A DNA stretch of 64,000 nt. Origin: Naegleria gruberi (taxonomy: Eukaryota). Under the pieces are notes generated by a model that was not told the origin of the DNA, did not search any database, and was given only the letters and a program-made list of their open reading frames with translations. Position 1 is the stretch's first letter. Each line of letters starts with the position of its first letter. Below, piece by piece: positions 8,027 to 56,120 of the stretch. Where the stretch lies: NCBI GenBank assembly GCA_000004985.1, contig GG738897.1, one strand, 5' to 3'. Position numbers and translations under genes: made by a program.

Positions 8027-9142
8027 ATGTCCCAACAAGAGAATACTCCATCATCACAAGAAAACACAACCAAGACAATATGGTTGGATGGTTGTTTTGA
8101 TATGATGCACTTTGGTCATGCCAATGTTATTAGACAAGCTTATAATTTATTCCCAAATGTTAAACTTCTTGTTGGTGTTCACTCCGATGAAGAAATTTTG
8201 AGACACAAAGGTCCAACTATTATGAAGGCTAATGAACGTTATGAACACGTTAGAAGTTGTAAATGGGTTGATGGTGTTATTGAAGATGCTCCATACGTAA
8301 CCGATCTTGAAATGTTAAAAAAGTATAATGTTGATTATTGTGTCCATGGTGATGACATTTCCTTTGATGAAAATGGAGAAGATTCATACAAGGCTATTAG
8401 ACAAGCTGGTTTGATGATGATTGTACCAAGAACTGAAGGTGTTAGTACAACTGATATTATCGGAAGAATGTTAAAACTTTCAAAATATAGAGAATTAGTT
8501 GCTCAAGGAATTGACCCAAGTGGCATTGAAGAATTAAAGCCACAAAGTGAAGTTGATCAAACTTGCATTTCTCCATACACTCGTACTAGACAACATTATC
8601 CATCAGTTAACCAAATTAATCAATTTGCTGCCAAGACTTCTCCACCTCCACCAGGTGCCAAGATTGTCTATGTTGATGGTGCTTTTGATATGTTCCACAC
8701 TGGTCACATTGAATTTTTGAAGGCTGCTAAAAAGCTTGGTGATTACCTCATTGTTGGTTTGCATGAAGATAAGGTCATTTCACAATTTAAGGGCCCACAT
8801 CACCCAATTATGAATATTCATGAAAGATTATTGAGTGTATTGTCTTGTAGATATGTTGATGATGTCATTATTGGAGCTCCATTCATTGTCACACAAGATT
8901 TGGTTGATGTTATGAAGATTAATATTGTAGTTTCTGGAACTGTTTTGGAACCTGAAGTTAAGGTTGATCCATATGAATTGCCAAAGAAGCTTGGTATTTA
9001 TCATCAAATTGAATCACCATGTAAAGAATTGACCACAACAAATATTATTAACAGAATTATTGATAATGCTAAGAGATATGAAGAAAGAAATGCTAAGAAG
9101 CAAGCTAAGGAAGTTCAAGGTATTGCCAATTTGAACAATTAA
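8027..9142 (+). CDS. Ethanolamine-phosphate cytidylyltransferase (PCYT2/ECT1-type, tandem CTP-transferase domains)
   Basis: Single exon with ATG at 8027. It has two cytidylyltransferase HxGH motifs (HFGHANVIRQAY and HTGHIEFLKAAK), each followed by an RYVD-type second-half motif. This is the tandem-domain architecture typical of ECT rather than CCT. Confidence 0.9.
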   Translation: MSQQENTPSSQENTTKTIWLDGCFDMMHFGHANVIRQAYNLFPNVKLLVGVHSDEEILRHKGPTIMKANERYEHVRSCKWVDGVIEDAPYVTDLEMLKKYNVDYCVHGDDISFDENGEDSYKAIRQAGLMMIVPRTEGVSTTDIIGRMLKLSKYRELVAQGIDPSGIEELKPQSEVDQTCISPYTRTRQHYPSVNQINQFAAKTSPPPPGAKIVYVDGAFDMFHTGHIEFLKAAKKLGDYLIVGLHEDKVISQFKGPHHPIMNIHERLLSVLSCRYVDDVIIGAPFIVTQDLVDVMKINIVVSGTVLEPEVKVDPYELPKKLGIYHQIESPCKELTTTNIINRIIDNAKRYEERNAKKQAKEVQGIANLNN

Positions 9143-9292
9143 ATTGTATAATAAATTATTTATTTTAATAACATGCACAAGCACTTTGAAATTACAGAAC
9201 TTCAATACTATCCTAATTTATGGTACTAATTGAAACCTGAAGATTAAATGTAAATCCATTTGGCGCCAAATAATAATTAAAAAAAAGTAAAA

Positions 9293-9787
9293 ATGTCTGA
9301 TCAAGGTCCACCACAAGGAACTCAAGAATTAACTGTCTTTGTCCAAAATTTGCTCCACCAAATGGTAAGAAGATCTAGAAAATTTGTGATGATAGAGTAA
9401 TAATAATTAACGGATTTTGTTTTTTCGGAAAATTAATTTTGTGTGGATTGTATTATCAATGATTCATCAAACTATTATTTTGGATTGTTATGATTTGGAA
9501 AATAATTACTGGATAAATGATAAATAGCAAAAAAGATTCCAAGATATGTCTGATACCATTATAAAGAGGAGTATGTTTAAATTATTGTTGAATATTAATT
9601 AAACTAAATAATAATAACTAGTCGATGAAATGGGAACAAGAATCGATGACTTGGAAAAGAGTATTTCAGATCTCATGGAACAAGCCGGTAGTAAGTATTA
9701 TCACATCACACAAATATTAACAAGCACCAAGTCCCTGATGAACAACAAGGAAAGGACTCTTCCACAGATTCATCCACCAACAAATAA
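9293..9787 (+). CDS. HSBP1: Heat shock factor-binding protein 1 (HSBP1); 4 micro-exons: 9293..9364, 9528..9570, 9622..9687, 9732..9787
   Basis: Spliced product MSDQGPPQGTQELTVFVQNLLHQM|QKRFQDMSDTIIKR|IDEMGTRIDDLEKSISDLMEQAG|VPDEQQGKDSSTDSSTNK. It aligns along its whole length with the conserved HSBP1 heptad core (…[45 protein letters not shown]…). Donors are gtaaga, gtatgt and gtagta; acceptors are tag, tag and aag. Only one exon (9630..9824 ORF) appears in the track. Confidence 0.75.
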
Positions 9788-11618: not shown

Positions 11619-11795
11619 TTTTTTAAATTTATTAATAAATTTTTGTTTGATTTATTTTGTTATTAAATCTGTATTATTGATGCTCAGTAGCAAATGATAA
11701 CCAGAAAAAAGTGGTATTACTGAGTGTAAGTTTTGCTTAGGATTAATGACCTAGGTCATGTTCCAGTTCTTTTAAGGTAAAAAGAGGTCAAAAGC

Positions 11796-11879
11796 TCCGA
11801 TGAGACGGAATCGAACCGCCGACCACAGGATAACAGGTACAACTACAGTCCCATGCTCTACCAGCTGAGCTATCATCGG
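11796..11879 (-). tRNA. tRNA-Tyr (anticodon GTA) with ~11-nt intron 3' of the anticodon
   Basis: The minus strand reads CCGATGA-TA-GCTC-AGCTGGTA-GAGC-A-TGGGA-CTGTAG-[ttgtacctgtt]-A-TCCTG-TGGTC-GGCGG-TTCGATT-CCGTC-TCATCGG-A. It has a 7-bp acceptor stem, a canonical D-arm (TAGCTCAGCTGGTAGAGC), a TΨC loop GGTTCGATTCC and a GTA anticodon with the intron one nt after it, as is typical for eukaryotic tRNA-Tyr. Confidence 0.8.
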
Positions 11880-12027
11880 TACATTAATTGGTTTATTTTT
11901 GCCTTTAAAACTTCTAAAAATAAGCAAATTTGATAACACAAGAAGTTCAACTAAACACTGAGTGCTTTGGTGGAATGTGAACATTGTGCTATAAAGTGCA
12001 GACTTGAACTTTACCATGTAGAAAAAA

Positions 12028-14472
12028 ATGCAAGCTCAAGATTGCACCAGTTCATCTCCTTGCGTCGAAAAATTGATCATCGACCTCGGAAAGAAGATTC
12101 AGCAAGGAGAAAACGTTGAGGAAAATTCAAAATTATTGAAGGAATTAGAAATACAAGAAGGATTGCCTCTTTCCCAGAATGTGTCAAATATGTTATATAA
12201 TTTGGATATTATTAAATTTTCGGATGAAGAATCTTTGATAAAATCCGTATTGTATGAAGATGTAAAAATTATGAATGAAAAGAAATTATATGAATGGTTG
12301 GAAAGTAAAATGGAAACTGATAGGGAGTGCATGTTGAGCTATCTTATAAAACCAAAGAGAATTCTTGAAGGAGAAGAGAAGGATCAATTCGAAAGGGTTA
12401 GACTTGGCTCTATTTGTTTGAGAAAGATTATTGAAATGTTGGATCCAATTCTGTTTAATTGGTTTTCATATGAAACTTATCAAGATTTGAGACAATTTTA
12501 TGGAGAATTTACTTGTGACAATTTTCTTCCAAAATCACAAGGTCCAATTTCAACATTCAACTTAATAATGGATTTGTATTGGAGAAAGGAATACTTTACT
12601 TGTTTTTCAATTGGTATTACCTTTTTGGAGAGAACATTGGGCGATTTATTATTACTTGTCTCGAAAAAATCAAAAGATAACCCAAATGATTTGGTTTCAA
12701 TTATCGAAAATTTCAGAGAGTTAAAAATTAATGAGCTGTTGATGGTTGAAGAAATTGAAGAGGCTCTTGGAAAGGAATTTGTATTTATTTTCAGATGTTT
12801 CTCAGGCCCACTACAAGGATTGAATTTAAGAAACGTTTTATGGCATGGATTTTTGGATTCTGAAAATTTCCCTAGATGCTTTGCATCTTTCCTGATCCTT
12901 CTCATCATTAGCATTTCAAAAAGAGAGGAAACCAAGCAAGTATTAGAGAATGCTTCCTCCAAGCAAGTTAGAAGATCTTTCAATACAATGCTGGATATTC
13001 CCGTCAATTCTGGTAATCCATTGAGAAGAGACTTTTCTGATTACATCAAGAATGGAGAACATGCATTGGAAGAGAGTTTTGATTTAATTGATGAGAGCTA
13101 CCTTATACCATACAGAAGTAAGAGAGATTGGAAAAAGTCTATCGAATACTATAGAAATGGGCATATTTTCTTGAGCTTTGTCACTCTCTTCCCACATTTA
13201 GAGCACGCCTTGAGAAGAATGTTTGCCTACTCGAATAATAATTTTGAAAGGCTCTTCTCAGCAGAGACTGACCAAGTTTACACAACATTTGATGAAATTA
13301 TGCACCCTAGCATTGATTATACAGAGGTTTCATCAAATTTGACAGATGGTGGTGATAAGACCTCCACTTGGACATTTGAAAACAGAAACCGTATATTTGA
13401 AGAAATAGGAGATAGCCTCATGTTATCCCTCTTTGATATTCTCTTCTTTAAGGATGGCCCAAGAATAAGAGACAAGTTGAGTCATGGTGTTGTTGATCCA
13501 CATCAAATTTTGGAAATTGAAAATCTGTCTGAGCAGGTAATCGCCATCGTGATGTGCATTATTTTCAATTGTTCCACACTCAATAGAGAAAATCAATCAA
13601 CTAACGAGCTAACCAATAAGATTTTAGAATTAAGAAATAATTTTACCTTTCAAACCTACCATCCCCAAATGAACTTTTTCAAAGAGTTTGACACCACTCT
13701 TGAAAAGTTCAAATCATTTGTTGAAAATACAGTTTCAAAAGCTTATTATTTTAGATATAAGGATGAATTTACAAAGAAATTATTTGAAAAGTATCCAAAT
13801 ACAGAAAGAGGAGAAAAGAGATTTATCGTCAAGCAATCATCAGATTTAGTCAACTTGATTGAAGTCTATAATAAGAGAATGCAAGATATTGGCCACGATT
13901 CAGTTGTATATAGAGATTTGTATCAACACAATATCAAACTTAACATCTTACTTGAAGAACCATCCGAAACAGAAACTATACAAAGTTTGGATTTGGAAAT
14001 GATACAAAATTCATTTGCTACCCTTAAGAAAACCAAAATGAAACCAAGACTTCCATTAACATTTTGTGGAAAAGTTGGAAATATTCAATCGATAGAATTT
14101 ACAAAAATATACAGACTCACAGATATTGTAAAGGCCAGTGGACAATTTGTTGATGAAGTCACTGCACTCTTAGCAGAATTGGAAGAACCAATTTTGAGTA
14201 GAAAGGCCTACTCTAGACATAGAAAGCGTTTCGTCTACACTTGCTACAATATGATTGACTTTTACAATCAATGCATTCTCCAACTTATGGCAGTTGAATT
14301 TTTATCCCTTAGCCCTGTCAACAAAATTGAATTGGACGAAAGAGGAATTATTTTGAGATTGGCTCGAGCAAGTCCACCAAGTGTGAAATCTTCAACATTA
14401 GACAAGATTGAAAAGCTAAATCTCGAATGGAAAACATTTATCCAAAATATCCAACTTGAAAAAAGCCCTTAA
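12028..14472 (+). CDS. Large conserved hypothetical protein (814 aa), α-helical, single exon
   Basis: ATG at 12028 and a long uninterrupted ORF. There is no kinase, ATPase or other catalytic signature. It contains an LRNVLWHGFLDSENFPR motif and may belong to a DUF-type family, which I cannot name with certainty. Confidence 0.55.
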   Translation: MQAQDCTSSSPCVEKLIIDLGKKIQQGENVEENSKLLKELEIQEGLPLSQNVSNMLYNLDIIKFSDEESLIKSVLYEDVKIMNEKKLYEWLESKMETDRECMLSYLIKPKRILEGEEKDQFERVRLGSICLRKIIEMLDPILFNWFSYETYQDLRQFYGEFTCDNFLPKSQGPISTFNLIMDLYWRKEYFTCFSIGITFLERTLGDLLLLVSKKSKDNPNDLVSIIENFRELKINELLMVEEIEEALGKEFVFIFRCFSGPLQGLNLRNVLWHGFLDSENFPRCFASFLILLIISISKREETKQVLENASSKQVRRSFNTMLDIPVNSGNPLRRDFSDYIKNGEHALEESFDLIDESYLIPYRSKRDWKKSIEYYRNGHIFLSFVTLFPHLEHALRRMFAYSNNNFERLFSAETDQVYTTFDEIMHPSIDYTEVSSNLTDGGDKTSTWTFENRNRIFEEIGDSLMLSLFDILFFKDGPRIRDKLSHGVVDPHQILEIENLSEQVIAIVMCIIFNCSTLNRENQSTNELTNKILELRNNFTFQTYHPQMNFFKEFDTTLEKFKSFVENTVSKAYYFRYKDEFTKKLFEKYPNTERGEKRFIVKQSSDLVNLIEVYNKRMQDIGHDSVVYRDLYQHNIKLNILLEEPSETETIQSLDLEMIQNSFATLKKTKMKPRLPLTFCGKVGNIQSIEFTKIYRLTDIVKASGQFVDEVTALLAELEEPILSRKAYSRHRKRFVYTCYNMIDFYNQCILQLMAVEFLSLSPVNKIELDERGIILRLARASPPSVKSSTLDKIEKLNLEWKTFIQNIQLEKSP

Positions 14473-37263: not shown

Positions 37264-39447
37264 TTATTGTAAGAAACAATAACTTTTGGAATTCGTTTCA
37301 TAGCCAATGTTAGGGTTTTCAATTTTGTAAACAATGTCTTTCTTTGAATGAGGGAGAATGAGTTTTGGAGCTGATTTTCCTTGTGATCTAATGTTTAGTT
37401 TTGCAAGTTCAATTTCTTCCTTGATGAATTCTCCACTATCCAAAAACAATAGTATCATACTAGGCATGGATTCTACAAACTGTTTCAATACAAAATTTTC
37501 AAAATGTTCTATTGGTTTCTCAGGTTTTCCTGAAAGATAAATCATTTCCAAGTTTTTGAAATATTGCACTTTTTTAAACGTCTCAATTGTTGGACCACTA
37601 TTTCCCAAGTTAACTTGAATCTTTTTTAACAGTTGTGGGTTAAGTAAGTCCAGTAATTTGATAAAATCATCGTTAGGTATTGTGCAATCTGGTAGTGATA
37701 AAGTGGTTATTTTGCTCAAGTATGGTTGTTGTAACAGGAATGAGCTAGTAATATTCTTTCCATTGAAAGAAAAATCAATACCATATTCTAAAGAAACAGG
37801 ACTGAAAGAGTTGAAAAACTTTACAATAATATCATCAGTGAATTCTGCTCCTGTGACTTTAAACACTGAAAGTGATGAAGCCTTACTAAAAAGTGAGAGA
37901 AGACTATTCTGACCAATTGAGTAAGTATTTTCTAAAATTACAGAATGTAAATAAGGTAAATTTTTCTTAAGAATGTTTGAAAATACTATTGGATACCTTT
38001 CGCTACAAGTACTGATATGAATATATCGTAGTTGTGAGTCTATCTCCTGATTCTCAAATTCTAACATTGAATCGTCTAGTGTTCCTCTCACCTTAACATT
38101 ATCCATCGTAAGGATCTTTAGATTAGGAGAATTATCAATTATATGATTAAGTAAATAGACTGATATTCTGGATTTTTTGATATCCAACTGTTCTATTGAC
38201 GTGTGAATATTTTTAAAATCATATCTCATGTTGTTAGTTTCAACATTAAACAAATGCAAATCTTTCAAAGAGGTACAAGCTGCCAAATTTTCATAAAACC
38301 CATTTAGATTGATCTGTGATCTTGAGATTGTATATTTGGATGTATCAACAATTGGTAAATTAGTAATATCTTGCGAACAGTTGAAGAAACTTTGACATTT
38401 AGGTACATCAATTTTGTTAAGGGCAGTGGTCATATTCATTGAAACAGTTTGAAGAGGATGATTCGGCAAAAAAACTAAATTCATATCTGGACTCATGAGA
38501 TGGTTAGAATATATTTTCAATTTAGGGAATACAGGTCTTGTCTTGTTTTCTGTTAATTGATTGATAACCCTGAAATTATCAAAATTAAATGATGTATCAA
38601 ATCGAAGAATTTCCAAATTACTGTTGCATATTATTTCCATTAACTCATCAGTGATTTCAAAGTCGTCTTCTCTCATAGTTGAATAGGAACGATAATTTTC
38701 GTTGGAAAATCCATTGATGAACAAGTTAAATTCTCGAAGTGATGGGCAGTTTTTCAATATTTCTTTAAATGAATATCCCAACACTGAGGTATAGACACAC
38801 AACGTCAATACCTTCAATCCGCTACAGAGCTGGGTATTGCCAATAATATTTTTAACATCCATAGCATTCTTTGCACATAGTCCATTACAAACAATTAATG
38901 GTTTCTGAATGAGCGTTTGGAAATAATTACCATCCCCAACATCCAATTCTTTACCAAATGATAATCTAGATATTGACTTGAGAGATGAATTAATTTCGTT
39001 TTTAACCCAATTATAATGTTTAGGAGAAACTATCAGCTCTGGGATGTTGAATTTTGAAATGAATTTTGATAGCTTTACAAACTCCTTAGAACCAAGAGTT
39101 GTAAAATTAATTAAATTAATTCTATCCATTTCAACTTCTTGTTCCGTCATCAAGGAATCAATATAATTGCCCAATAAATTTGCAGGATAAATTTCCTTTC
39201 TATCTTCTGAATTACTAGAATACCAATTAGCGCCAGGAGTTCCCTCAATAATAATTTCATCATATCTAAATCCCATCAATAAAATCTGCATGGTAATTGT
39301 TCTCAAATTCTTACTACAACAAATAACATTTACCAACGATCTCGGATCACAATAACTCATTATACAAAATAACATCTCTCTCGGAAGATCATCCAATGAT
39401 TGGCAAAGTAGTGCATCATCCTCTCTATCGTTCTCATTTTGCGCCAT
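37264..39447 (-). CDS. F-box / leucine-rich-repeat protein (727 aa)
   Basis: ATG at 39445-39447. N-terminal F-box LLCQSLDDLPREMLFCIMSYCDPRSLVNVICCSKNLRTI, followed by many irregular LRR-like units (LKILTMDNVKV, LKDLHLFNVETN, LEILRFDTSFN …). Confidence 0.65.
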   Translation of the reverse strand: MAQNENDREDDALLCQSLDDLPREMLFCIMSYCDPRSLVNVICCSKNLRTITMQILLMGFRYDEIIIEGTPGANWYSSNSEDRKEIYPANLLGNYIDSLMTEQEVEMDRINLINFTTLGSKEFVKLSKFISKFNIPELIVSPKHYNWVKNEINSSLKSISRLSFGKELDVGDGNYFQTLIQKPLIVCNGLCAKNAMDVKNIIGNTQLCSGLKVLTLCVYTSVLGYSFKEILKNCPSLREFNLFINGFSNENYRSYSTMREDDFEITDELMEIICNSNLEILRFDTSFNFDNFRVINQLTENKTRPVFPKLKIYSNHLMSPDMNLVFLPNHPLQTVSMNMTTALNKIDVPKCQSFFNCSQDITNLPIVDTSKYTISRSQINLNGFYENLAACTSLKDLHLFNVETNNMRYDFKNIHTSIEQLDIKKSRISVYLLNHIIDNSPNLKILTMDNVKVRGTLDDSMLEFENQEIDSQLRYIHISTCSERYPIVFSNILKKNLPYLHSVILENTYSIGQNSLLSLFSKASSLSVFKVTGAEFTDDIIVKFFNSFSPVSLEYGIDFSFNGKNITSSFLLQQPYLSKITTLSLPDCTIPNDDFIKLLDLLNPQLLKKIQVNLGNSGPTIETFKKVQYFKNLEMIYLSGKPEKPIEHFENFVLKQFVESMPSMILLFLDSGEFIKEEIELAKLNIRSQGKSAPKLILPHSKKDIVYKIENPNIGYETNSKSYCFLQ

Positions 39448-39593
39448 TTTTTTTTGTTTTAATTTTACAAGTTCATTTCAAACGAACACTTGGAAGTAAA
39501 TTGGAAATCTTAAATCAGTGGTAGATGCATTATTAAGGTTTCGTCTATACTGAAATAGATCATTGTGTATTTTTCTAGAGTTTAAAACAAAGT

Positions 39594-41543
39594 TTAATGG
39601 AAATAATTGAAAATGCACTTGATGGATTCCTCTCTTAGCATTCTTCTTAAATTGTATTCCTTACTCAATTCCTCATTTGCATGTTCCTCACTTTCGTCTT
39701 TAGATTCCAATAATTGAAGTGAATCTTTTCCAAAATATTCCAAGTCTTCTTTTCTGTTTAATTCCAACAGTTCTGATTCACTCAAAGTTTGATAATCAAT
39801 TTCATTTTCTTTCCATTCATTTGTTTGAGAAATATTCGAATGTGTATGATTGAAGAATAATGAGCCATGCCCATACCAATTCTTTAAATAGAGTTTCTCT
39901 GAGAGCGTTCGTTCCTCTCCATAAAGTTCTGAATGAACTCTAATGGAAACCTTTAATAATTCATCCTCTAGGGAACCTTCCAATATTTTGCTTTCGTCCA
40001 AAGTTTCAATTTCTGAATCGTCAATAAAATCTTCATCCTTTTTTGCACCATCTTTCTCCTCAGCGATATTAGATTCCTTATTGATAATAATAAATTCATC
40101 ATTCTCCTCATCTGAATTTTCATTTTCTGTATATTCTAATAGGAATTCCATTTCATTATCAGAAACTTCCTCATCGTCCACATCACTAGGGACATCTGAT
40201 TCAGGTCTTGATCTTTTATTCTCAATGACATAATAAAATTTAGAATTATCCAACGCATCCATAATTTCTATATCCGAAACTTTCAATTCTTCATCCTCTT
40301 CCAAGTCTCCTCCAATTTCTGCATTACTTCTTAAAAAATGCTCATAATCCATTGGGTGTTCAGTGTATGGAATAGGAACATCCTTATTGTCTCCATACTT
40401 GTTCTCCACAACTATTTTCAATAAATTTCGAAGATATTCCTGTAAGAGAAAGAGTGCATTTTCAATCATAATTGGTTCAAAATAAATGATTCCTCTTTTT
40501 CTAAATAGATTCTTGATACCATCTCGAATAGAATGATACATAAAAGTGTCATCTAAATGAACGCAAATTTCAAACTTTCGAAATTCACTGCATTGATAAG
40601 TTTCTAATAAAATTGAAGTCTGCTCGTCATTGGAAACTGCCGATTTCTGTACATCATTAATATATGAATCAATTTGTCTTTGATCATTCTTAATTTTATC
40701 ATAGAAAAGTAAGAAATCTTCATCTAATTTCAAATTATGCACTTGTTCATCTGTCAACTTTAAATATTTCTGAACTAGTCCTTTATATTCTTCAGAATAA
40801 ATAGTATCTTGTGAAAGATAGAATTGCTCATCAATTGAACCTTCACAAAGTGGAATACCAAATGGAATTCTCTTGTCAATAATCTCATTTTCATCTTCCA
40901 TTTCAATTGTCTCATCATTTTCTATAATTTCATCTTCTTCTACTGTCGCTTCAACTTCATTCTCTTCATCATCTTCATCTTTGTGAAAATAAATTGGTTT
41001 AACTCCAAAACGAAAATTTCCAGATTTGAATTCTTCTAGATTAGTGGCGTAGGTATCAAAATCTACATGAGATACTTGCTCCCAATCAGTTTCATTTAAA
41101 AATATGGTTGGCTTCCAAGTAGAAAGATCAGTAAATAGATCTGGATGCCTTGTGTGAATAGTTTCGAATTTTCTAATCTTATCAAATATCCCATGCATGT
41201 GTAAATTGGTTTCGTAAATATATTTGGTTGCATCACGAAATATGGAAAGCAGCATGGATGTTAAATCTTTACAGAGGAATAACAATTCGAAACTTTCGTC
41301 CACTTCTAGAAACCTCATAACATGAAACCAACAATCGGAAATTTTAACAAGATCACACGATTTGTTTTTGATATTCGAATGTTGAATAGTTGAGTTGAAA
41401 TCAAATTGTCGTTCAACATTTTCTATTTCTTCATCACAAGATGATTGTGAATCATCCGATTCGTTATCTAAAGTAGCCGAAACAATCAGAAACTTGCTTG
41501 GGCGCAAATATTCACTATTTAGCAGCGGAAGTGTTCTCTTCAT
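39594..41543 (-). CDS. F-box-like protein with extremely acidic (D/E-rich) central and C-terminal regions
   Basis: ATG at 41541-41543. Degenerate F-box CDLVKISDCWFHVMRFLEVDESFELLFLCKDLTSML. Long DEEENEVEATVEEDEIIENDETIEMEDENE and DEEVSDNEMEFLLEYTENENSDEENDEF tracts. Confidence 0.5.
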   Translation of the reverse strand: MKRTLPLLNSEYLRPSKFLIVSATLDNESDDSQSSCDEEIENVERQFDFNSTIQHSNIKNKSCDLVKISDCWFHVMRFLEVDESFELLFLCKDLTSMLLSIFRDATKYIYETNLHMHGIFDKIRKFETIHTRHPDLFTDLSTWKPTIFLNETDWEQVSHVDFDTYATNLEEFKSGNFRFGVKPIYFHKDEDDEENEVEATVEEDEIIENDETIEMEDENEIIDKRIPFGIPLCEGSIDEQFYLSQDTIYSEEYKGLVQKYLKLTDEQVHNLKLDEDFLLFYDKIKNDQRQIDSYINDVQKSAVSNDEQTSILLETYQCSEFRKFEICVHLDDTFMYHSIRDGIKNLFRKRGIIYFEPIMIENALFLLQEYLRNLLKIVVENKYGDNKDVPIPYTEHPMDYEHFLRSNAEIGGDLEEDEELKVSDIEIMDALDNSKFYYVIENKRSRPESDVPSDVDDEEVSDNEMEFLLEYTENENSDEENDEFIIINKESNIAEEKDGAKKDEDFIDDSEIETLDESKILEGSLEDELLKVSIRVHSELYGEERTLSEKLYLKNWYGHGSLFFNHTHSNISQTNEWKENEIDYQTLSESELLELNRKEDLEYFGKDSLQLLESKDESEEHANEELSKEYNLRRMLREESIKCIFNYFH

Positions 41544-41890
41544 TTTTTCTGAAAAAGTAATTGTAAATCTTCCCTATTTTACTGGAAAAACTGAGGTAAA
41601 CAGTGTTTCATACTTTTGTAACTGTTGCATCGTGTTCAATATTGTAAATAAATTTTATGATAAATTAAGGTTGGCAGTTTCCGTAGAGCTCCATTGCCAA
41701 AATATCCACTGCCTCTTTCATATTTGCACAAGATAGGCAAATTTAAAGAAGCGTAATTTGTCAATGATGGTTAAGGATTTGAATTGGTGAATTTCCAAAT
41801 TTCTCCTTAATTATTGGAGAGGGTCTCAAGTTTTGACATTTTTTAAATTAAATATTTTAATTGTTTTAATTCAAAATTATTAATTAAAAA

Positions 41891-43210
41891 ATGCAACCAC
41901 TAGATCATACCCTCTCACTCACAGGCTTTGCAATTTTAATTGTATTATTGGTGATTGTGTGGATTTTGGTGAGAAAAAGGGTTCGGAATTATTGCAATAA
42001 TCATCCAAGTAGAAAGGAATTTAAAGTTTATTTGCCATTTTGTAGTGATGAATTGGCATTAATTATTTCATTTCTTGAAAAATCAGACATCGGAAATCTT
42101 TCTCTTGTTTGTAGAGAGGCTAAACAAGCTACTTATTCAAGTACAGTTTGGAATGAGTTATGTGGAACTGTTTCTCTTCGGAGAGTTGAAGGATTGTTGA
42201 ATTTGGAGAGATATGAAGGGAAAATTAAAAATTTGAAATTAATTACTGATCAAGATGAGTATTTTGATGATGATTTTATTTGTAGGATATTCGAAAGATT
42301 GAATGAAAGGTTTCAAATAAGAAAGATGACTATCGAAGTTTCTACATTGGAATTATTCAAGTTTAATTTATTGAATCATTTGGATTGCTTAGAATGTTTG
42401 GAACATTTGAAAATATTGGATAATTCTACAATTTCTATTTTGTTTAATAATTCTTTGATGCCAATTAGATTACCCAAGAAATTGGAATCTATCAAAGTAA
42501 GAGGATTTAGTAGAGTTGCAAATAGAAGTTATGTGTTTGACACTATTTTTATACAAACAGAAAATATCAAAATTGTAAAATTTGAGAACAATCAAGGTTT
42601 TAATGAAATCAAGTTTCAATCACCAAAGGTTGATTTGAAACACTTGACCTCTATTTCACTCTCTTGGACAAGCAATATTTCAACTGAGTATTTCAATAAT
42701 TTAATGGGGAAGTGTAAAAATCTCAAAAAATTGGATCTATCAGGATCTACTTTTGTGGCAAATAATTTGAATATCCCAACCACTATTGAAGTATTGGACA
42801 TTTCCTCCTGCTTGTTTGATGACACAACTCTAACAATGATAGCGTGCCTACCATATTTGAAATTTGTTAACCTTTCATCAACACTCATACCTTTAGATAT
42901 CTTGATACTTTATTGCCAAGTTGGACGATGTGTTATTTGTCAAATTGGAAGTAAGGAAGAGTTGCAAATTCTAAAATCCAACAAACATATTCGTTTATCA
43001 CGCATTTCTCCTCTAGATTTTGATTCCAAAATCAAAGAAATTAAGAAGTCCACCTCAGTAGAATCCAACATTTGTAAAATGTACTATCAACAAGTATTTA
43101 CCGATCCTATTGAGCCTCCAAAGCTAACTCTAAAACCAACAAAACTCTACAAGGCAAAACTAGTCAAATTTTCAGCCTCCAAAGACATTGAAATTGATAA
43201 TGGAAATTAA
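41891..43210 (+). CDS. F-box / LRR protein with N-terminal TM segment
   Basis: ATG at 41891. The N-terminal hydrophobic segment is LTGFAILIVLLVIVWILV. F-box FCSDELALIISFLEKSDIGNLSLVCREAKQATYSSTVWNEL. LRR-like units follow (LKHLTSISLSWTSNIS, LKKLDLSGSTFV, LKFVNLSST). Confidence 0.6.
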   Translation: MQPLDHTLSLTGFAILIVLLVIVWILVRKRVRNYCNNHPSRKEFKVYLPFCSDELALIISFLEKSDIGNLSLVCREAKQATYSSTVWNELCGTVSLRRVEGLLNLERYEGKIKNLKLITDQDEYFDDDFICRIFERLNERFQIRKMTIEVSTLELFKFNLLNHLDCLECLEHLKILDNSTISILFNNSLMPIRLPKKLESIKVRGFSRVANRSYVFDTIFIQTENIKIVKFENNQGFNEIKFQSPKVDLKHLTSISLSWTSNISTEYFNNLMGKCKNLKKLDLSGSTFVANNLNIPTTIEVLDISSCLFDDTTLTMIACLPYLKFVNLSSTLIPLDILILYCQVGRCVICQIGSKEELQILKSNKHIRLSRISPLDFDSKIKEIKKSTSVESNICKMYYQQVFTDPIEPPKLTLKPTKLYKAKLVKFSASKDIEIDNGN

Positions 43211-43735: not shown

Positions 43736-45212
43736 ATGATATCAAATCTATGCACACAAATAATAGGAATGGAACGTGTTTTTCCAAAGTTTGCAAATGC
43801 AACCAAGTTGCACAAAACTCTCCTTCTCTCCCTTCCACATAAAGTCACTTCATTAACAAGTTCTTTGGCTGTGTTTTCAAAGCACAATGTTAATTTGATA
43901 AAGATTGAATCACGTCCTAATCGATTTGATAAGAAGGTTATTGATTTTGTTGTCAATGTTGATGAAGGAGTGAGTAAGGATATTGTTGATAGAGCCATCA
44001 AGGAAATGGTTCAAGAAAAGATTTGTGATCATGTACAATATTTGGGATTTGAAAATAAGATTCCTTGGTTCCCAACAAAGATTGCAGATATTGACCATTT
44101 CGCAAGAGAATGTCTTGAAGCTGGTGCTGTTTTGCAAGCTGATCATCCAGGTTTCCATGATCAAGGTAAGGAATTGATTTATTGACATTGTTTCTAATGT
44201 TTATCAAATCAATAGAATACAGAGATCGTAGAAAGATGATCGCAGACATTGCTTTGAATTACAAACATGGAAGTCCAATTCCACGTATTGATTACACTGA
44301 AACTGAAAATAAGACTTGGAGTATTATTTACAAGAAATTGACAGCTCTCTATCCTAAATATGCTTGCGAACAATATAACAACTTGTTCCCATTATTTGAA
44401 CAAAACTGTGGTTTCAAGGAAGATAAAATCCCACAATTACAAGATGTCAGTGACTTTTTGTTGAGCTCAACAGGTTTCAGAATTAGACCTGTCTCTGGTT
44501 TGCTCACTTCAAGAGAGTAAGTTTTCAATTTTGAAATTTTTCATCATTTAACCCAAATAGTTTCCTTAATGCTCTTGCTTTTAGAGTTTTCCACAGTACC
44601 CAATATATTAGACATCACAGTAAGCCATACTATACACCAGAACCTGATGTTGTTCACGAAATGCTTGGTCACATGCCATTATTGGCTGATTCTGATTTTG
44701 CTGAATTCTCTCAACAAATTGGTCTTGCATCTCTCGGAGCTTCCGATGAAGAAATTGACAGACTTGTTAGACTCTACTGGTACTGTCTCGAATTTGGTAT
44801 CCTCAAGGAAAACGGTTCCTTGAAGGCTTATGGTGCTGGTTTGTTAAGCTCGTTTGGTGAACTAGAATATGGTTGTTCAGGCATTGATGCAGAAACTGGA
44901 AAGAAACCAGAATATTTACCATTCGTTCCAGAAGATGCTGCTAATAGAGTTTATCCAATCACTCACTACCAACCAATCTATTATGTTGTTGAAAGCTTGG
45001 AATCATGCAAAGATTTAATTAGAAGATACGTCAACAATTCTCTCGATAGACCATTCCAACTCAAATATAATCCATACACAAGTACTGTAGATGTTTTGGA
45101 TTCTCAAGAAAAATTAATAAGCTTGACAAAAACCATTCAAAACAACATGGATCTGTTAAAGTCTTCCCTTTCAAAGATTGGTCGTTCCTATGAAATTAAC
45201 AATAAAAAATAA
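43736..45212 (+). CDS. Biopterin-dependent aromatic amino acid hydroxylase (phenylalanine-4-hydroxylase-like) with N-terminal ACT regulatory domain; exons 43736..44165, 44216..44516, 44561..45212
   Basis: ACT domain: [34 protein letters not shown]. The catalytic domain is collinear with PAH. Examples: [15 protein letters not shown]…DHPGFHDQ|[42 protein letters not shown]…[15 protein letters not shown]|[43 protein letters not shown]…[14 protein letters not shown]. This includes the Fe-binding HxxxxH…E context. Donors are g|gtaagg and ga|gtaagt; acceptors are aatag and aaatag. Confidence 0.85.
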
Positions 45213-51171: not shown

Positions 51172-52367
51172 TTAGTGCCTCATTCGTGCAAATAAAGCTG
51201 GTAAATGTGGCAATATTTCATGATAACTAATGTTACCGTCACCATCAACATCACAATCATGCAGCATTTCATCAACTAAATCTGAAATGTCTTCCTCCGA
51301 AATATCTTCATCACCATTCTTTGAGAGAGCTTCCTGCACGTCTTGCATGAAGCTTAATAGTTCATCTCTTTCAATTACACCAGATCCATCTCCATCATAA
51401 TATTCAAATATATAACGAAGTAACCTGGATTGAAGCTTCTTTTGCAGTTTGCTAACCTCTTTGGAATCAAATATTGGTGATGGAGTTTCAAAATCTTCAT
51501 CTGCTAATATCTTCATGAACAGATTGATATCTCGAAGTAAATTACCAGTAGGCCGATAATCAAAGAACCTAAAGAACAAGTCAAATTCCTTTTTCAATTC
51601 TCTTGATGTGAGATTTTCAAGAAATTGTATTTGTTCTGTCGATAAGCTTGGATTAAACACTATATAAGACTCGTCTAACTGGCCACATGAATCAATCATT
51701 TCACCTCTCATTATATTAGAACTCCAAAATAATTCAAAACTCAGTCTGTCAAACTTTTGAGCCTTAATTACATTTTGCAAGCTCTCCACCAGTGTTGTTA
51801 TACTCTCTATAGGAAAAATAGCAACAAGTATTAGTTTTAGTAACAACAATAACAAAACTTACTTTCTGTTACTTTGGTTTGACCACACATGTATAATAAA
51901 TCTCTACAAAACTTTCTCAACTCTGATGAATCTAAAAATCCACTCTTATCCCTATCATATGAATCAAATACTATCTTTGAAAGCTTCATTGATACTTCTT
52001 CCTTTGATTCATTCTGATCAAAATATGTAATGATTGAATTTACATTCTCGAATAAGTTCGTATGAACTGGCAGATCAAAAAACTTTAATATATTCTCAAA
52101 TTGCTTATTCATTTCCGCCATCTTAGTGTTCCTCCTCCTCCTTTTAATATTAAGATAACCTTTCAGTGATTCCTTTGATGTATTGAGAAGGTTTTTCTTG
52201 GCCTTATTTATATTTACATAAGGCGTTGTACTCGATTTTATAGGAGAGACCGTTGTTGAATTGTCGCTAACTTTTGTTGATGATGAGAAGAATGTCCTCA
52301 CTGATGATGAATTCGAAGAGGAGGACACGGAATTTCCACAAGATATAGATGAGCAAATTCCCCCCAT
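51172..52367 (-). CDS. EF-hand calcium-binding protein (≥3 EF hands); exons 52367..51863 and 51806..51172, 56-nt intron
   Basis: The N-terminus MGGICSS… looks like a myristoylation/palmitoylation site. EF loops are DRDKSGFLDSSEL, DGDGSGVIERDEL and DVDGDGNISYHEI. Exon 1 ends …GQTKVTE(a)|gtaagt. The acceptor cctatag gives …K SITTLVESLQNVIKAQKFDRLSFELF…. Confidence 0.75.
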
Positions 52368-53039
52368 TTTTTATGTTGTGTGTTGGGGCTGGCAACGAAT
52401 AATTGCTTCTTTTTCCCTCAATAAATTTTTAATGGAAATAGAGCACATTTAGGGCTATTTTGTTGGCTCCTTCATTAAGGTGGACCTTATGAAATGTCCA
52501 CAAACAAGCCATACCAGTCCATGGAGGCAATCACTAATTAAGGTAAAATCACCCTTATTAATCGAGATGTATTGTGATATTAATTCCAGTCCATTAAGAT
52601 TTATTATCTTAACGTAGAGGACTTGATAGTCAGTCGATGTGAAAATAAGACAAATGTTTGTTTGTGAATATATTCTTTGGGGATTATGTCTCCTCCATTA
52701 TACAGTTGTTTACTGATTGAAAATGTGTTACCTCTTCCTCAATAGTAGAAACAAAAGCTTCAGACTTTTTCTCACATCGGTTTTGGAATGGAGATAAGGT
52801 TCGAATTGAATATATTTTGGTGCTAAAGTCCATTTTAATTTTCCATATTAATATTACTTTCAATACCAATGTATTATCCACAAGAAAGCTTTGTTTCAAT
52901 CAGTTAATATTATTGACGTTAACCAGCTATCTAATTTTAAAAATTCATCATCATATAAATAGCAAATTGTAAAATATTAGCCAATTTGAAATACAAAAAC
53001 AAATTATTATTAAATAATTTATAAAAATAGATTTAAAAA

Positions 53040-54080
53040 ATGACGACGAATAACCAATCGATGGCAATGTATTCCTCTGCTACTCAGCAACAGGATACAA
53101 ATGGCCAACAACAACAAGATGGTAAAAACGGTGCAAATTATAATACAAACCGATTAAACGCTAGACAACAGATGAATATTGGAGTTTTAAAGAGAAAAGA
53201 TAAATTTATTACGACAATACACTCGACCTTTGATCATGTAGTATTTTACAAGTTTCAAGATGATTCATGGGATAAATTGGAAGTAGAAGGAGCCATGTTT
53301 ATTGTAGAGAGAAACGAACCAAAATTTCCCAAGTATCGTATTGTAGTGATGAATAGAAAGAGTAGTGATGATTTTCGTCAAGATATTACAAAGGATTTAG
53401 AATTGGAAGTCCATCACCCATATGTATTCTATAGAACCAAAGGTCGTATTATCAAGGGAATTTGGTTCTACAAATCTTTGCAATGTATTGAATTTAATGA
53501 CCTCATCGTTTCGTTGAAAGAAAAGGCCTATGGAAAGACGGAACCAGAAAGCAAACAATCAAATACTTTTGTACAACCACCAACTACTTTGCAACCATCT
53601 CCTCTAATTAATTACCATCCAAACCATGCTGATTCAATTTATCATCCATCATCACAATCCCATCAAATTAATCATCATCAAAACGATTCACAACCATCAT
53701 CAGATGCTTCATCTTTACTTAAGAATATGCTAGGAATTGGAGGTGTAACAGGATTACCACCAGTTGAAAATGGTTCCTTTAATCCATCATCTGCAATGGA
53801 CGGAAATAATTATCTAGATGAAGAATCACTTATCAGAGAACACTTTTTCAACTCTAGTGCCAATCAACAAGTTTCTACTGTGGTTGAACCAGAATATTCA
53901 TCTGTGTTATCTCAAGAGTGTGTTCAACAATTCGGAAAGAGGAAGTTTGTCACTAAGGAAATGTTCATCAATCAGCTCATGTTCACACTAGAATCTAACA
54001 AGGACTTTTCCGATGCTTGCTACAATCAATATTGCCAATTTCTAGCTGATGAAAATAAACAATCAGGAAATAGGTGCTAG
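53040..54080 (+). CDS. DCP1: mRNA-decapping enzyme subunit 1 (Dcp1, EVH1/PH-like domain)
   Basis: ATG at 53040. After a Q-rich N-terminus comes the Dcp1 EVH1 core: VVFYKFQDDSWDKLEVEGAMFIVERNEPKFPKYRIVVMNRKSSDDFRQDITKDLELEVHHPYVFYRTKGRIIKGIWFY. This corresponds to the conserved W-x-K-x-x-EG-x-LF…NR…G-IW-FY pattern. A short 3' exon cannot be excluded. Confidence 0.75.
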   Translation: MTTNNQSMAMYSSATQQQDTNGQQQQDGKNGANYNTNRLNARQQMNIGVLKRKDKFITTIHSTFDHVVFYKFQDDSWDKLEVEGAMFIVERNEPKFPKYRIVVMNRKSSDDFRQDITKDLELEVHHPYVFYRTKGRIIKGIWFYKSLQCIEFNDLIVSLKEKAYGKTEPESKQSNTFVQPPTTLQPSPLINYHPNHADSIYHPSSQSHQINHHQNDSQPSSDASSLLKNMLGIGGVTGLPPVENGSFNPSSAMDGNNYLDEESLIREHFFNSSANQQVSTVVEPEYSSVLSQECVQQFGKRKFVTKEMFINQLMFTLESNKDFSDACYNQYCQFLADENKQSGNRC

Positions 54081-54260
54081 ATATATAGGTAAAATAATTT
54101 ACAATTTCTTCTTCTCCAATAATGATGATTATTATCTTATCCTATTCATCATTATTAATTCAACAACTTCTAACACCAAGATAACCAACAGTTCTCTGCA
54201 AATCTCAAAGTCCTCCTCCATCGAAGTGCGATCCTGATGAAAAAAGGCTTGTGAAAAAAA

Positions 54261-56120
54261 ATGTCATTCAAAACAACAACAGCTTCATCATCATCGTGTT
54301 CATCATCTGATGGTGGTGTGGTATCATCATTGATGAATATGAGTGTTTTTACTTTTGGACAATATGCCATCTATACCGTGATTGGTTATATGGTTATTAA
54401 ATTTATTTATAAATTAATATTTGGAAGAAGTTACATGTGGAAGCAAGTTAAACCATTCGATACTAAGAAACGTCTTTCAACACCACTTCAAGAATGGGTT
54501 GCTACAACAAGAAAGAATCCACAAGGAAGACAAATGATTCCTTGTACTAATCCAGGAACAGGTGAAGAATTATGTGATCCTGTACCAGCAATGAATACTC
54601 AAGATGTTGAAGAAAGAATTTCCTCTGCTAAGAAGGCTTTTGAAGGTTGGTCCAAGACATCATTTGAGGATAGAAAGAGAGTACTCTTGCATTTGTTGGA
54701 CAATATCTTGAAACACAAACATGAAATTGTTGCCAAGAGTTGTAAAGATACTGGTAAGACAATGTTTGAAGCTCATTTGGGTGAAGTTGTCATGACTTGT
54801 GAAAAGATTAGATGGTTAACTACTAGAGGTGAACAATTCCTTTCACCTGAAACTAGACATGTTCCATTAATGATGATTTACAAAGTTGCCACAGTTCAAT
54901 ATTTACCATTGGGTGTTATTGGTATGATTGTTCCATGGAATTATCCTTTCCAAAATGCTATCAATGCTATTATTGCTGCTCTATTTGCTGGTAACTCTGT
55001 TGTTATTAAGGTTAGTGAATGGGCTACTTGGTCAAGTGTTGAATTATATGAACATTTAGTTCAAGATGCTTTAATTAAGGCTGGTTTCTCTCCAGATACT
55101 GTTCAATTCATTGTTGGTTTTGGTGAAGCTGGTAATGCTCTTGCTAAATCAAAGAATACTAGTCACGTTTTCTTTATTGGTTCTCCTGAAATCGGAAAGA
55201 AGGTCATGATGGCTGCCACTGAAAATTTGACACCTGTTACATTGGAATTGGGAGGCAAGGATCCATTCATTGTTTGTGAAGATGCTAACGTTGATATTGC
55301 TGTTGATGTTGCTATTAGAGCTTCTCTTTACAATTGTGGCCAAAATTGTATTGCTGCTGAAAGATTGTACGTTCATGAAAAGATTCATGACAAGTTTGTT
55401 GCTAAGGCAGTTGAACTTATGAAATCACTCAGACAAAGACCAACCTGTACTAAGGATTGTGCTCTTGAACCAGAAGAAATTAACGATATTGGTGCCATGA
55501 CCATGTCAACATCTATTGAAAAGATTGAAAAAGTCATTCAAGATGCTGTTAAGGGAGGTGCTAAGCTCGTTCTTGGTGGTAAGAGAAATCCAAATTTGAA
55601 GGGTCAATTCTTGGAACCAACTCTCCTCACTGAAGTTAAGAATGATATGAATGTTGTTCAAGATGAAGTTTTTGGACCAGTTGTCACTATTGTCAAGTGG
55701 AAGGATGAAGAAGAAGTCATTGGAATGGCTAATAGTACTTGTTATGCTCTTGGTTCATATGTATTTGCTGGTGATCAAAAGCGTGCTGAAAGAATTGGTA
55801 ACCGTCTCGTTGCTGGTTTGACCATGGTTAATGACTATGGTTTGAGCTACTTGATTCAAGATTTGCCATTCGGTGGTGTTAAGGTTTCTGGTTTTGGTAG
55901 ATTCAATGGTCCAGAAGGTCTCCGTGCTTTCACTATCCAAAAGAGTTTCGTTACTAACAGATTCCCAATTGATATGCCTCCACCAAAACTTATTAGATAC
56001 CCAACTGAAGGTTATGCTCATATGGTTGTTGCTCACTTGGTTGACTTCTTATATGGTCCATGGACTGGTACTGTTGGTTCTCTCTTCCGTTTAGTTGGAG
56101 CTTTAATGGGAAAGAAATAA
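54261..56120 (+). CDS. Aldehyde dehydrogenase family protein with ~100-aa N-terminal extension containing a TM helix (Msc7-like)
   Basis: ATG at 54261. TM helix VFTFGQYAIYTVIGYMVIKFIYKLIFG. ALDH motifs are ELGGKDPFIV (catalytic Glu) and NCGQNCIAAER (catalytic Cys). GxGxxG-like FIGSPEIGKKV. Single exon. Confidence 0.85.
   Translation: MSFKTTTASSSSCSSSDGGVVSSLMNMSVFTFGQYAIYTVIGYMVIKFIYKLIFGRSYMWKQVKPFDTKKRLSTPLQEWVATTRKNPQGRQMIPCTNPGTGEELCDPVPAMNTQDVEERISSAKKAFEGWSKTSFEDRKRVLLHLLDNILKHKHEIVAKSCKDTGKTMFEAHLGEVVMTCEKIRWLTTRGEQFLSPETRHVPLMMIYKVATVQYLPLGVIGMIVPWNYPFQNAINAIIAALFAGNSVVIKVSEWATWSSVELYEHLVQDALIKAGFSPDTVQFIVGFGEAGNALAKSKNTSHVFFIGSPEIGKKVMMAATENLTPVTLELGGKDPFIVCEDANVDIAVDVAIRASLYNCGQNCIAAERLYVHEKIHDKFVAKAVELMKSLRQRPTCTKDCALEPEEINDIGAMTMSTSIEKIEKVIQDAVKGGAKLVLGGKRNPNLKGQFLEPTLLTEVKNDMNVVQDEVFGPVVTIVKWKDEEEVIGMANSTCYALGSYVFAGDQKRAERIGNRLVAGLTMVNDYGLSYLIQDLPFGGVKVSGFGRFNGPEGLRAFTIQKSFVTNRFPIDMPPPKLIRYPTEGYAHMVVAHLVDFLYGPWTGTVGSLFRLVGALMGKK

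Follow-up and report, generated by a model that had tools for sequence, protein, structure and literature searches.

Three consecutive F-box genes of Naegleria gruberi (positions 37264 to 43210 of a 64-kb stretch of contig GG738897.1, assembly GCA_000004985.1; the whole stretch that was analysed is referred to as the window) probably form a heterogeneous neighbourhood of different F-box genes and not a recently duplicated family, with the middle gene belonging to a family that joins an F-box to a fold resembling histone H4. We put the probability of this reading at about 60%. As judged from their sequences, the three proteins share an F-box of ~45 residues and nothing else detectable. Gene 1 (NAEGRDRAFT_52226; 37264..39447, minus strand; 727 amino acids (aa); EFC39799.1) encodes an F-box followed by an irregular region resembling leucine-rich repeats (LRRs). 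Gene 2 (NAEGRDRAFT_52227; 39594..41543, minus strand; 649 aa; EFC39800.1) encodes a diverged protein with a predicted F-box, an H4-like histone fold and acidic tracts, and gene 3 (NAEGRDRAFT_72470; 41891..43210, plus strand; 439 aa; EFC39737.1) a predicted N-terminal hydrophobic anchor, an F-box and a few LRR-like repeats. The three open reading frames (ORFs) lie exactly at the coordinates and on the strands given in a first-pass annotation of the window, and the peptides quoted there are found in the three proteins. All three products are residue-for-residue identical to annotated N. gruberi proteins, of which UniRef names those of genes 1 and 3 'F-box domain-containing protein' and that of gene 2 merely 'predicted protein'.

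A family joining an F-box to a putative histone H4-like fold

The relatives of gene 2 were recovered by an exhaustive HMMER search, which gave 21 family proteins including the query (best relative at E 7e-57). A word-indexed search with gene 2 returned the query only, a false negative in view of the 20 relatives found exhaustively. N. gruberi carries at least three full-length copies as well as clusters with partial N. gruberi entries, N. fowleri and N. lovaniensis have one copy each, and Willaertia magna has three. The amoebozoan Thecamoeba quadrilineata contributes one member, present as a transcript, and several environmental eukaryote contigs also carry members of the family. A giant-virus origin was considered and rejected, no relatives having been found in viral contigs. 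The F-box and the H4-like fold are carried by a single uninterrupted ORF in independent assemblies and also in the Thecamoeba transcript. Gene 2 shares 30-37% identity with the other heterolobosean members, which share 36-69% among themselves, and within this alignment it appears as the most diverged heterolobosean member; the rapid divergence that had been proposed for the whole cluster is thus borne out for gene 2.

From the N to the C terminus, members of the family would be composed of an F-box, an acidic tract, an H4-like fold with an insertion before its last helix (alpha3), a second acidic tract and a C-terminal domain. In gene 2, whose features all lie on the minus strand, acidic tract 1 covers aa 187-222 (40878..40985) and reaches 60% aspartate and glutamate (D/E) in aa 191-220. 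It is followed by the predicted H4-like fold at aa 337-440 (40224..40535), which was assigned by comparing the family profile with PDB, by acidic tract 2 at aa 441-504 (40032..40223), with 40-47% D/E per 30-residue segment, and by the conserved C-terminal domain at aa 505-649 (39597..40031). The C-terminal domain (DFIDDSE ... VHEEVYGKERTH.EKLYLKNWYG ... EYHLRRLLREES..CI) is the most conserved part of the family and holds most of its invariant columns; it has no PDB match at E <= 10 and no Pfam match. D and E make up 24% of the gene 2 protein overall with a peak of 60% per 30 residues, and no uninterrupted D/E run exceeds 6 residues. The first-pass annotation, which did not include the histone-fold domain of gene 2, had described 'very long poly-acidic tracts': the acidic-rich regions are real, but their length was overstated.

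The link to H4 is made with profiles of the whole family. When the full-length, unedited profile was compared with PDB, all 60 matches listed were to H4 (best E 1.5e-4, H4 residues 30-84). With the insertion of 30-50 residues before the last helix excised by eye, the profile aligned with H4 residues 31-99 at E 3.8e-7, and H4 was again the only protein among the matches listed. Scored against the family profile, human H4 reached 30.1 bits compared with 1.3 for H3 and 1.0 for H2B; no match to H2A was reported, and 8000 shuffles scored 10.0 at most. A tblastn search with human H4 led to a Willaertia homologue (48.6% identity over 37 aa), and Pfam TFIID-31kDa (TAF9), another histone fold, was weakly matched by 6 of 14 excised segments. 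The alignment with H4 (PDB 7wlr_B, 2yfv_B and 1aoi_B; residues ~31-99) runs through alpha1-L1-alpha2-L2-alpha3 and the C-terminal LYGF strand, and both sides have in common the RRLxRRxGVK motif and the hydrophobic pattern of alpha2. The consensus of the family alignment reads LRxGIxRLxRRAGVKYYEPxxIxDxxxLLKxxIxxVIxxAY ... DLKxNxxDIxxAxEKxxGxKLYGF, and the corresponding parts of gene 2 are alpha1 IKNLFRKRG, L1 IIYFEP, alpha2 IMIENALFLLQEYLRNLLKIVVENKY, an insertion of ~35 aa, alpha3 LKVSDIEIMDALDNS and then KFYYV. In an AlphaFold2 (AF2) model of gene 2, aa 334-349, 357-383 (27 residues) and 424-433 are helical; their predicted local distance difference test (pLDDT) values are 66-78, and their lengths suit alpha1, alpha2 and alpha3. 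Judged by these profiles, the gene-2 family would contain a histone fold, one that in sequence is, at family level, of the H4 type.

Unlike H4 itself, the fold lies C-terminal to an F-box within a protein of 550-830 aa, has an insertion of ~30-50 residues ahead of alpha3, and is flanked by sequence with 40-60% D/E. It has no basic N-terminal tail, and in L1 the residues corresponding to H4 R45 and S47 are Y/F and E. Canonical H4 is a protein of ~100 aa with a basic lysine-rich tail and DNA-contacting loops, a description that the 649-aa product of gene 2 does not fit; the gene 2 protein is plainly not a histone. Because of the changed L1 residues, the insertion and the acidic flanks, binding of the family to nucleosomal DNA seems unlikely from what is known of nucleosome structure. 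A second, H3-like fold within the gene 2 protein, which would make it a histone doublet, was also considered and found no support, and no histone gene was found in the window or in seven related loci.

Three further observations concern individual members or segments. The stretch ahead of the histone fold (gene 2 aa 235-262, DQFxLxQDxLxxxEYxxLVxxxL) matched S100-A16 only, weakly (E 0.03) and in its N-terminal pseudo-EF-hand, a resemblance that was treated as noise. In one family member from a Logan assembly (P0014), a NUDIX domain is found at the C terminus (Pfam E 3.1e-13); this may be a genuine fusion, or gene models may have been merged on the contig of 4.9 kb. For the Willaertia homologue P0010, the F-box is encoded by an upstream ORF that was annotated separately (locus L007, 9373-9894, plus strand; 58.5 bits with the family hidden Markov model (HMM)), and the deposited P0010 gene model is probably split or truncated.

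F-boxes of the three proteins

The F-box of gene 1 (39283..39396, minus strand; aa 18-55, LDDLPREMLFCIMSYCDPRSLVNVICCSKNLRTITMQI) scores 28.5 bits with Pfam F-box (cut-off 20.5; aa 18-51) and 24.3 bits with F-box-like, and as a fragment it reaches 32.3 and 30.1 bits, respectively. That of gene 3 (42032..42163, plus strand; aa 48-91) stays 0.5-0.7 bits below both cut-offs when the whole protein is scanned (F-box-like 23.8 against 24.3, F-box 19.8 against 20.5) and clears both in a scan restricted to aa 37-110 (26.8 and 22.0 bits). Gene 2 carries a degenerate copy (41214..41354, minus strand; aa 64-110, DLVKISDCWFHVMRFLEVDESFELLFLCKDLTSMLLSIF...), located through the family alignment and the family profile, with IS where LP is usual and L where a conserved W is usual.

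This copy aligns in register with textbook F-boxes of its relatives, such as FLPNDVLFEIMSFLEMNDLLRISLVSTTWHQL, and 5 of the 15 family members match Pfam F-box or F-box-like, the best at 1.3e-11. Compared with PDB, the N-terminal profile of the family gave F-box proteins in 41 of 42 matches, with FBXL5 the best (1.3e-8), followed by FBXO3, TIR1, KDM2A/B, FBXL2 and Skp2. Aa 69-110 of gene 2 scored 13.4 bits with an HMM built from the relatives, gene 2 excluded, whereas the top of 6000 composition-matched shuffles scored 10.5. When the 64 kb were scanned in six frames with the relatives' F-box HMM, only the three genes stood out (17.9, 13.3 and 12.2 bits), the next segment being at 7.6 bits.

By these measures all three are F-box proteins, with gene 2 best described as F-box-derived. 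The F-box claim of the first-pass annotation therefore stands, although on different grounds for each gene: gene 1 lies above the Pfam F-box cut-off, gene 3 only as a fragment, and gene 2 is recognised by the family profile and not by Pfam. For gene 2 the call by eye was right in kind, as seen from the family profile and from an HMM score above the shuffles, and the copy is degenerate. The presence of an F-box in all three makes these genes plausible candidates for substrate adaptors of SCF (Skp1-cullin-F-box) ubiquitin ligases.

Origin of the cluster

The cluster had been interpreted as a tandemly duplicated family, and this interpretation is not supported. BLASTP among the three proteins gave best E-values of 3.1, 0.53 and 8.9, and Smith-Waterman alignment with the F-boxes removed gave z-scores of 1.4 (genes 1 and 3), -1.45 (genes 1 and 2) and 0.08 (genes 3 and 2), all within the shuffle distributions. 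The architectures differ as well: an F-box with a long LRR-like region in gene 1, an F-box with a histone fold and acidic tracts in gene 2, and a predicted transmembrane (TM) segment with an F-box and a short LRR-like region in gene 3. In addition, gene 2 has a family of its own that extends across the genera Naegleria, Willaertia and Thecamoeba. A locus of W. magna (L006) is syntenic with the window (aldehyde dehydrogenase 75% identity over 597 aa, DCP1 70%, EF-hand genes 56-61%) and contains a gene-2 homologue, with no further F-box gene within 10 kb on each side. When 18 window proteins, including those of genes 1 and 3, were compared with the seven related loci, nothing was found for genes 1 and 3 at E <= 1e-5. 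These comparisons indicate that the three-gene cluster is not ancestral, and recent tandem duplication is not supported because there is no similarity beyond the F-box and because L006 is without F-box neighbours. An ancient duplication, of which the F-box would be the last discernible trace, is conceivable.

Conserved synteny of the three genes was likewise considered and rejected: neither the N. fowleri nor the N. lovaniensis locus yielded a tblastn match to gene 1 or gene 3. The microsynteny with Willaertia comprises the EF-hand, DCP1 and aldehyde dehydrogenase genes (window 51172-56120, L006 12856-19468) and is inverted relative to the gene-2 homologue.

F-box genes near gene-2 homologues in other genomes

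F-box genes were also encountered beside several gene-2 homologues elsewhere. In one environmental contig (L004, JGI sample 3300062347), a gene for a 672-aa F-box/LRR protein (11714-13732, plus strand) lies on the same strand 72 bp downstream of the gene-2 homologue, an arrangement that mirrors the order of gene 2 and gene 1, the latter following on the same strand after 146 bp. Once the F-boxes had been taken out, aa 130-529 of gene 1 and aa 156-511 of this neighbour gave a colinear Smith-Waterman alignment with a score of 94 against 48.9+-7.4 for shuffles (0 of 1500 reaching it), shuffling being a lenient null for LRR-like or repeat proteins; BLASTP found nothing between the two (E 5.8). A second W. 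magna locus (L005) has a 431-aa F-box gene in divergent orientation 227 bp upstream of the homologue, whose product has no TM segment and resembles gene 3 only in the F-box. An F-box gene lies 3.4 kb from the homologue in another JGI locus (L003), and an unannotated F-box reading frame 2.2 kb upstream of it in N. fowleri (L001). No F-box neighbours of the gene-2 homologue were found in N. lovaniensis (L002) or in W. magna L006, and the third W. magna locus (L007) gave one weak F-box HMM match (14.5 bits) ~6.6 kb away.

The N. fowleri locus L001 (VFQX01000001.1) shows some further features. The F-box in the unannotated frame at 7488-7772 (minus strand) is clear (IQSRDVLFEIFSFSLAPSVLFKYSLVCKSWNDQF) and scores 22.1 bits against the family HMM, and the region from 5.8 to 7.9 kb holds many short ORFs in differing frames, which may represent an intron-rich or decayed F-box gene missed by annotation. 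In the gene between the F-box frame and the homologue (7929-9656, plus strand), a DGNCCPQS motif recalls, by eye, those of OTU deubiquitinases. A Skp1 gene (12714-13479, minus strand; Pfam Skp1_POZ and Skp1) lies 277 bp downstream of the homologue in convergent orientation. This adjacency was rejected as a conserved feature, as it is not seen in the N. lovaniensis locus.

Alternative explanations

Several points weigh against the interpretation of the cluster as a heterogeneous neighbourhood that includes an F-box/H4-like family. The F-box of gene 2 has no Pfam match even at E <= 10, either within the whole protein or as a fragment, and since its LP and W positions are also lost, binding of Skp1 by this particular copy is doubtful. 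The H4 link comes from family-level profiles, the histone-fold segment of gene 2 on its own having no PDB match, and the stronger of the two E-values followed removal of the insertion by eye. The AF2 model of gene 2, built from a 15-sequence alignment, is poor (mean pLDDT 50), and fold searches with it gave nothing significant; Foldseek against PDB returned no match at E <= 0.001, and its top six hits, all F-box chains at E > 3, are not evidence. The LRR assignments of genes 1 and 3 are sub-threshold. Unless F-box genes are very abundant in the genome, chance would also seldom place three of them in a row, and the neighbours of gene-2 homologues elsewhere hint at more than chance. In one alternative, a single F-box gene would have been duplicated locally, and divergence or replacement of the C-terminal parts would have been too rapid for anything but the F-box to remain recognisable. 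In the 64 kb, F-box-like segments do occur in these three consecutive genes and nowhere else, gene 2 is clearly evolving fast, and recurrent local duplication of F-box-bearing genes would yield F-box genes near gene-2 homologues, as seen in W. magna L005, the JGI loci L004 and L003 and N. fowleri L001. Such duplicates would nevertheless have to account for three distinct C-terminal architectures with nothing similar outside the F-box, for a gene 2 family common to several genera, for a syntenic Willaertia locus from which both neighbours are absent, and for a divergent F-box neighbour in L005 that lacks both a TM segment and any similarity to gene 3 beyond the F-box. Local duplication is therefore regarded as distinctly improbable.

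The same neighbours could instead reflect function, if the gene-2 family and a partner F-box/LRR gene formed a conserved and possibly co-regulated pair, for example as two receptors in one dimeric SCF or, for genes 2 and 3, through a bidirectional promoter. This would fit the short downstream distance on the same strand in both L004 (72 bp) and the window (146 bp), the alignment of gene 1 with the L004 protein (94, not reached by any shuffle, compared with z = 1.4 for genes 1 and 3), the divergent F-box genes at 227 bp in L005 and at 347 bp in the window (gene 3), and the Skp1 gene adjoining the N. fowleri homologue. However, L002 and L006 are without F-box neighbours and L007 has a single weak match, Skp1 is not adjacent in the close relative N. 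lovaniensis, and the pair of gene 1 and the L004 protein depends on a lenient shuffle control and is null in BLASTP, so that a functional pairing also seems quite unlikely. A different question is whether gene 2 itself is still an SCF adaptor. Its F-box may have decayed, leaving an SCF-independent acidic binder of histone folds, either a chaperone or a decoy, or the gene as a whole may be decaying. The failure in Pfam with loss of the LP and W positions, the position of gene 2 as the most diverged heterolobosean member aligned, and the established occurrence of acidic tracts in histone chaperones would be in line with this, but the 649-codon ORF is intact, the hydrophobic pattern of the F-box is in register and scores above all shuffles, and most invariant columns of the family are retained. 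Decay of gene 2 is accordingly considered unlikely, and a neighbourhood of different F-box genes, with gene 2 as a divergent member of the F-box/H4-like family, remains the preferred interpretation.

Possible function of the gene-2 family

Histone folds require a partner, which for a fold of the H4 type is normally one of the H3 type. Acidic tracts are a hallmark of histone chaperones and of other proteins that handle free histones. As an H4-type fold pairs with an H3-type fold and the acidic tracts are typical of histone handlers, the architecture of the family suggests an SCF receptor that would mimic H4 and thereby capture an H3-type fold. In such a receptor the H4-like fold would pair with an H3-type partner in a handshake, the acidic tracts would shield the basic surfaces of the partner, and the F-box would deliver the histone-partner complex to SCF. 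The substrate could be H3, centromeric H3 or another H3-like fold, and we infer every functional step in this scheme. In its full form, this proposal amounts to a new class of SCF receptor, in which an H4 mimic captures H3 or centromeric H3 that lacks H4, the acidic tracts mask it and the ubiquitin system receives it; at present this is a speculative and rather unlikely scenario.

If the pairing with an H3-type fold is true, mimicry of a histone would be the means by which this ubiquitin-ligase adaptor picks out its substrate, and amoebae would possess a dedicated route for the quality control or dosage of unpaired H3. The disposal of unpaired or excess histones is usually attributed to recognition of the WD40 or RING type, and mimicry would then be a different route.

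LRR-like regions in genes 1 and 3, and a predicted membrane anchor in gene 3

Gene 1 would encode a soluble F-box protein with an LRR-like region at aa ~200-650 (37498..38850, minus strand), for which the support is weak. It matches Pfam LRR_At5g56370 at E 5e-4 (20.2 bits, under the cut-off of 27), and the core LRR motif (LxxLxLxxNxL-type) occurs 8 times against 3.1+-1.6 in shuffles (p ~0.01); the region has no PDB sequence match. Gene 3 has LRR-like repeats at aa 245-340 (42623..42910, plus strand; LKKLDLSGS.., IEVLDISSC.., LKFVNLSST..), with three core motifs at spacings of 21 and 24 residues. The core motif occurs 4 times in gene 3 against 2.0 expected (p 0.115), and the sole PDB matches of aa 260-338 at E <= 10 are LRR proteins (internalin K, 4ezg) at E 0.028-0.12. 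All Pfam LRR matches of the two genes are below cut-off (20.2 and 14.4 bits, against 27), so that both LRR assignments are weakly supported. The LRR-like repeats noted in the first-pass annotation are suggested by the motif excess and by the resemblance to internalin, with no Pfam LRR match above cut-off. In both proteins the F-box would bind Skp1 and the repeat domain would bind substrates.

In gene 3, a predicted signal-anchor or TM segment lies at aa 9-27 (41915..41971, plus strand; SLTGFAILIVLLVIVWILV), with a Kyte-Doolittle mean of 2.93 over these 19 residues, D5 before it and RKRVR after it. The N-terminal TM helix that had been proposed for this gene is thereby borne out by hydropathy. 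M1 is the first start codon past an upstream in-frame stop and no further Met precedes the F-box; since M1 is the only possible start, anchor and F-box should be translated together, barring an unseen intron. A cleaved signal peptide would usually have a shorter hydrophobic core, and in a single-sequence AF2 model of gene 3 (mean pLDDT 42) the helix at 7-37 is the only moderately confident part (pLDDT 73-80). According to the positive-inside rule, the positively charged flank of a membrane segment stays in the cytosol. Because the charges are distributed in this way, acidic before and RKRVR after the segment, the F-box and the LRR-like part are predicted to be cytosolic, and the features of gene 3 fit a signal anchor in this orientation. 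Gene 3 would then be confined to a membrane surface, where it could join Skp1 in the cytosol and act on membrane-proximal substrates.

Word-indexed homologue searches with genes 1 and 3 returned the query only, and in the same type of search no orthologue of gene 3 was found; this absence is weak evidence, because the search also missed the 20 relatives of gene 2.

Relation to known systems

The combination of an N-terminal F-box with subsequent LRRs, as suggested for genes 1 and 3, is that of F-box/LRR proteins of the FBXL type such as Skp2, FBXL2, FBXL5 and TIR1, the same four proteins being best PDB matches of the F-box profile of the gene-2 family. Unlike in FBXL proteins, the repeats of genes 1 and 3 are under every Pfam LRR cut-off, no full-length homologues were found in the word-indexed search, and gene 3 bears an additional, predicted N-terminal membrane anchor. 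A TM segment on an F-box protein is unusual, as stated in the first-pass annotation, but there is precedent: according to a passage in PMC10111352 that cites Matsumoto et al. 2011, the human FBXW7beta isoform has a unique N-terminal transmembrane domain and resides in the endoplasmic reticulum. On that description, FBXW7beta has a single N-terminal TM segment ahead of the F-box, as is predicted for gene 3. The repeats of FBXW7beta are WD40 repeats and those of gene 3 LRR-like, and the resemblance is architectural only, with no sequence relationship sought or seen beyond the F-box. The putatively membrane-anchored F-box/LRR protein of gene 3, with its animal precedent, is a smaller curiosity.

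Ubiquitination of an H3-family histone by SCF is known from yeast, where the H3 variant Cse4 is a target of SCF-Met30 and SCF-Cdc4, and both Met30 and Cdc4 recognise their substrates via WD40 domains (PMC7032732). The gene-2 family would likewise act on an H3-family histone if its inferred function is correct, the proposed recognition module in this case being a histone fold. Acidic histone chaperones include nucleoplasmin, Nap1 and proteins with acidic tails such as Spt16 and nucleolin. With these the gene-2 family has in common D/E-rich stretches beside a putative histone-binding module, a similarity in composition only, with no homology detected.

The F-box gene cluster itself is ordinary, and two of its three genes already carry an F-box label in UniProt. 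What is new is a small family from amoebae (Heterolobosea, Thecamoeba and amoeba-like environmental genomes) that appears to fuse an F-box to an H4-like fold with acidic flanks. No description of an F-box protein with a histone fold was found in the literature searched, and the recent surveys of unusual eukaryotic histone-fold proteins consulted do not mention this combination.

Genomic context of the cluster

The window has a G+C content of ~33% throughout. Genes 2 and 3 are divergently transcribed from an AT-rich spacer of 347 bp (41544..41890), which may hold a shared promoter. Other genes in the window encode a protein kinase, importin-beta, BCS1, an RCC1-like protein, an alpha/beta hydrolase, a short-chain dehydrogenase, EF-hand proteins, DCP1, aldehyde dehydrogenase and an intron-split aromatic amino-acid hydroxylase. 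The hydroxylase gene (43736-45212, plus strand; Biopterin_H E 1e-63, with an ACT-like N-terminal part) is spread over several ORFs in different frames, presumably owing to introns, in a stretch that is otherwise intron-poor. A 770-aa ORF (23387-25699, minus strand) combines BTB_2 with an extended series of pentapeptide repeats and with RGS, the last matched weakly; BTB with pentapeptide repeats recalls KCTD9, and the extra RGS domain looks unusual.

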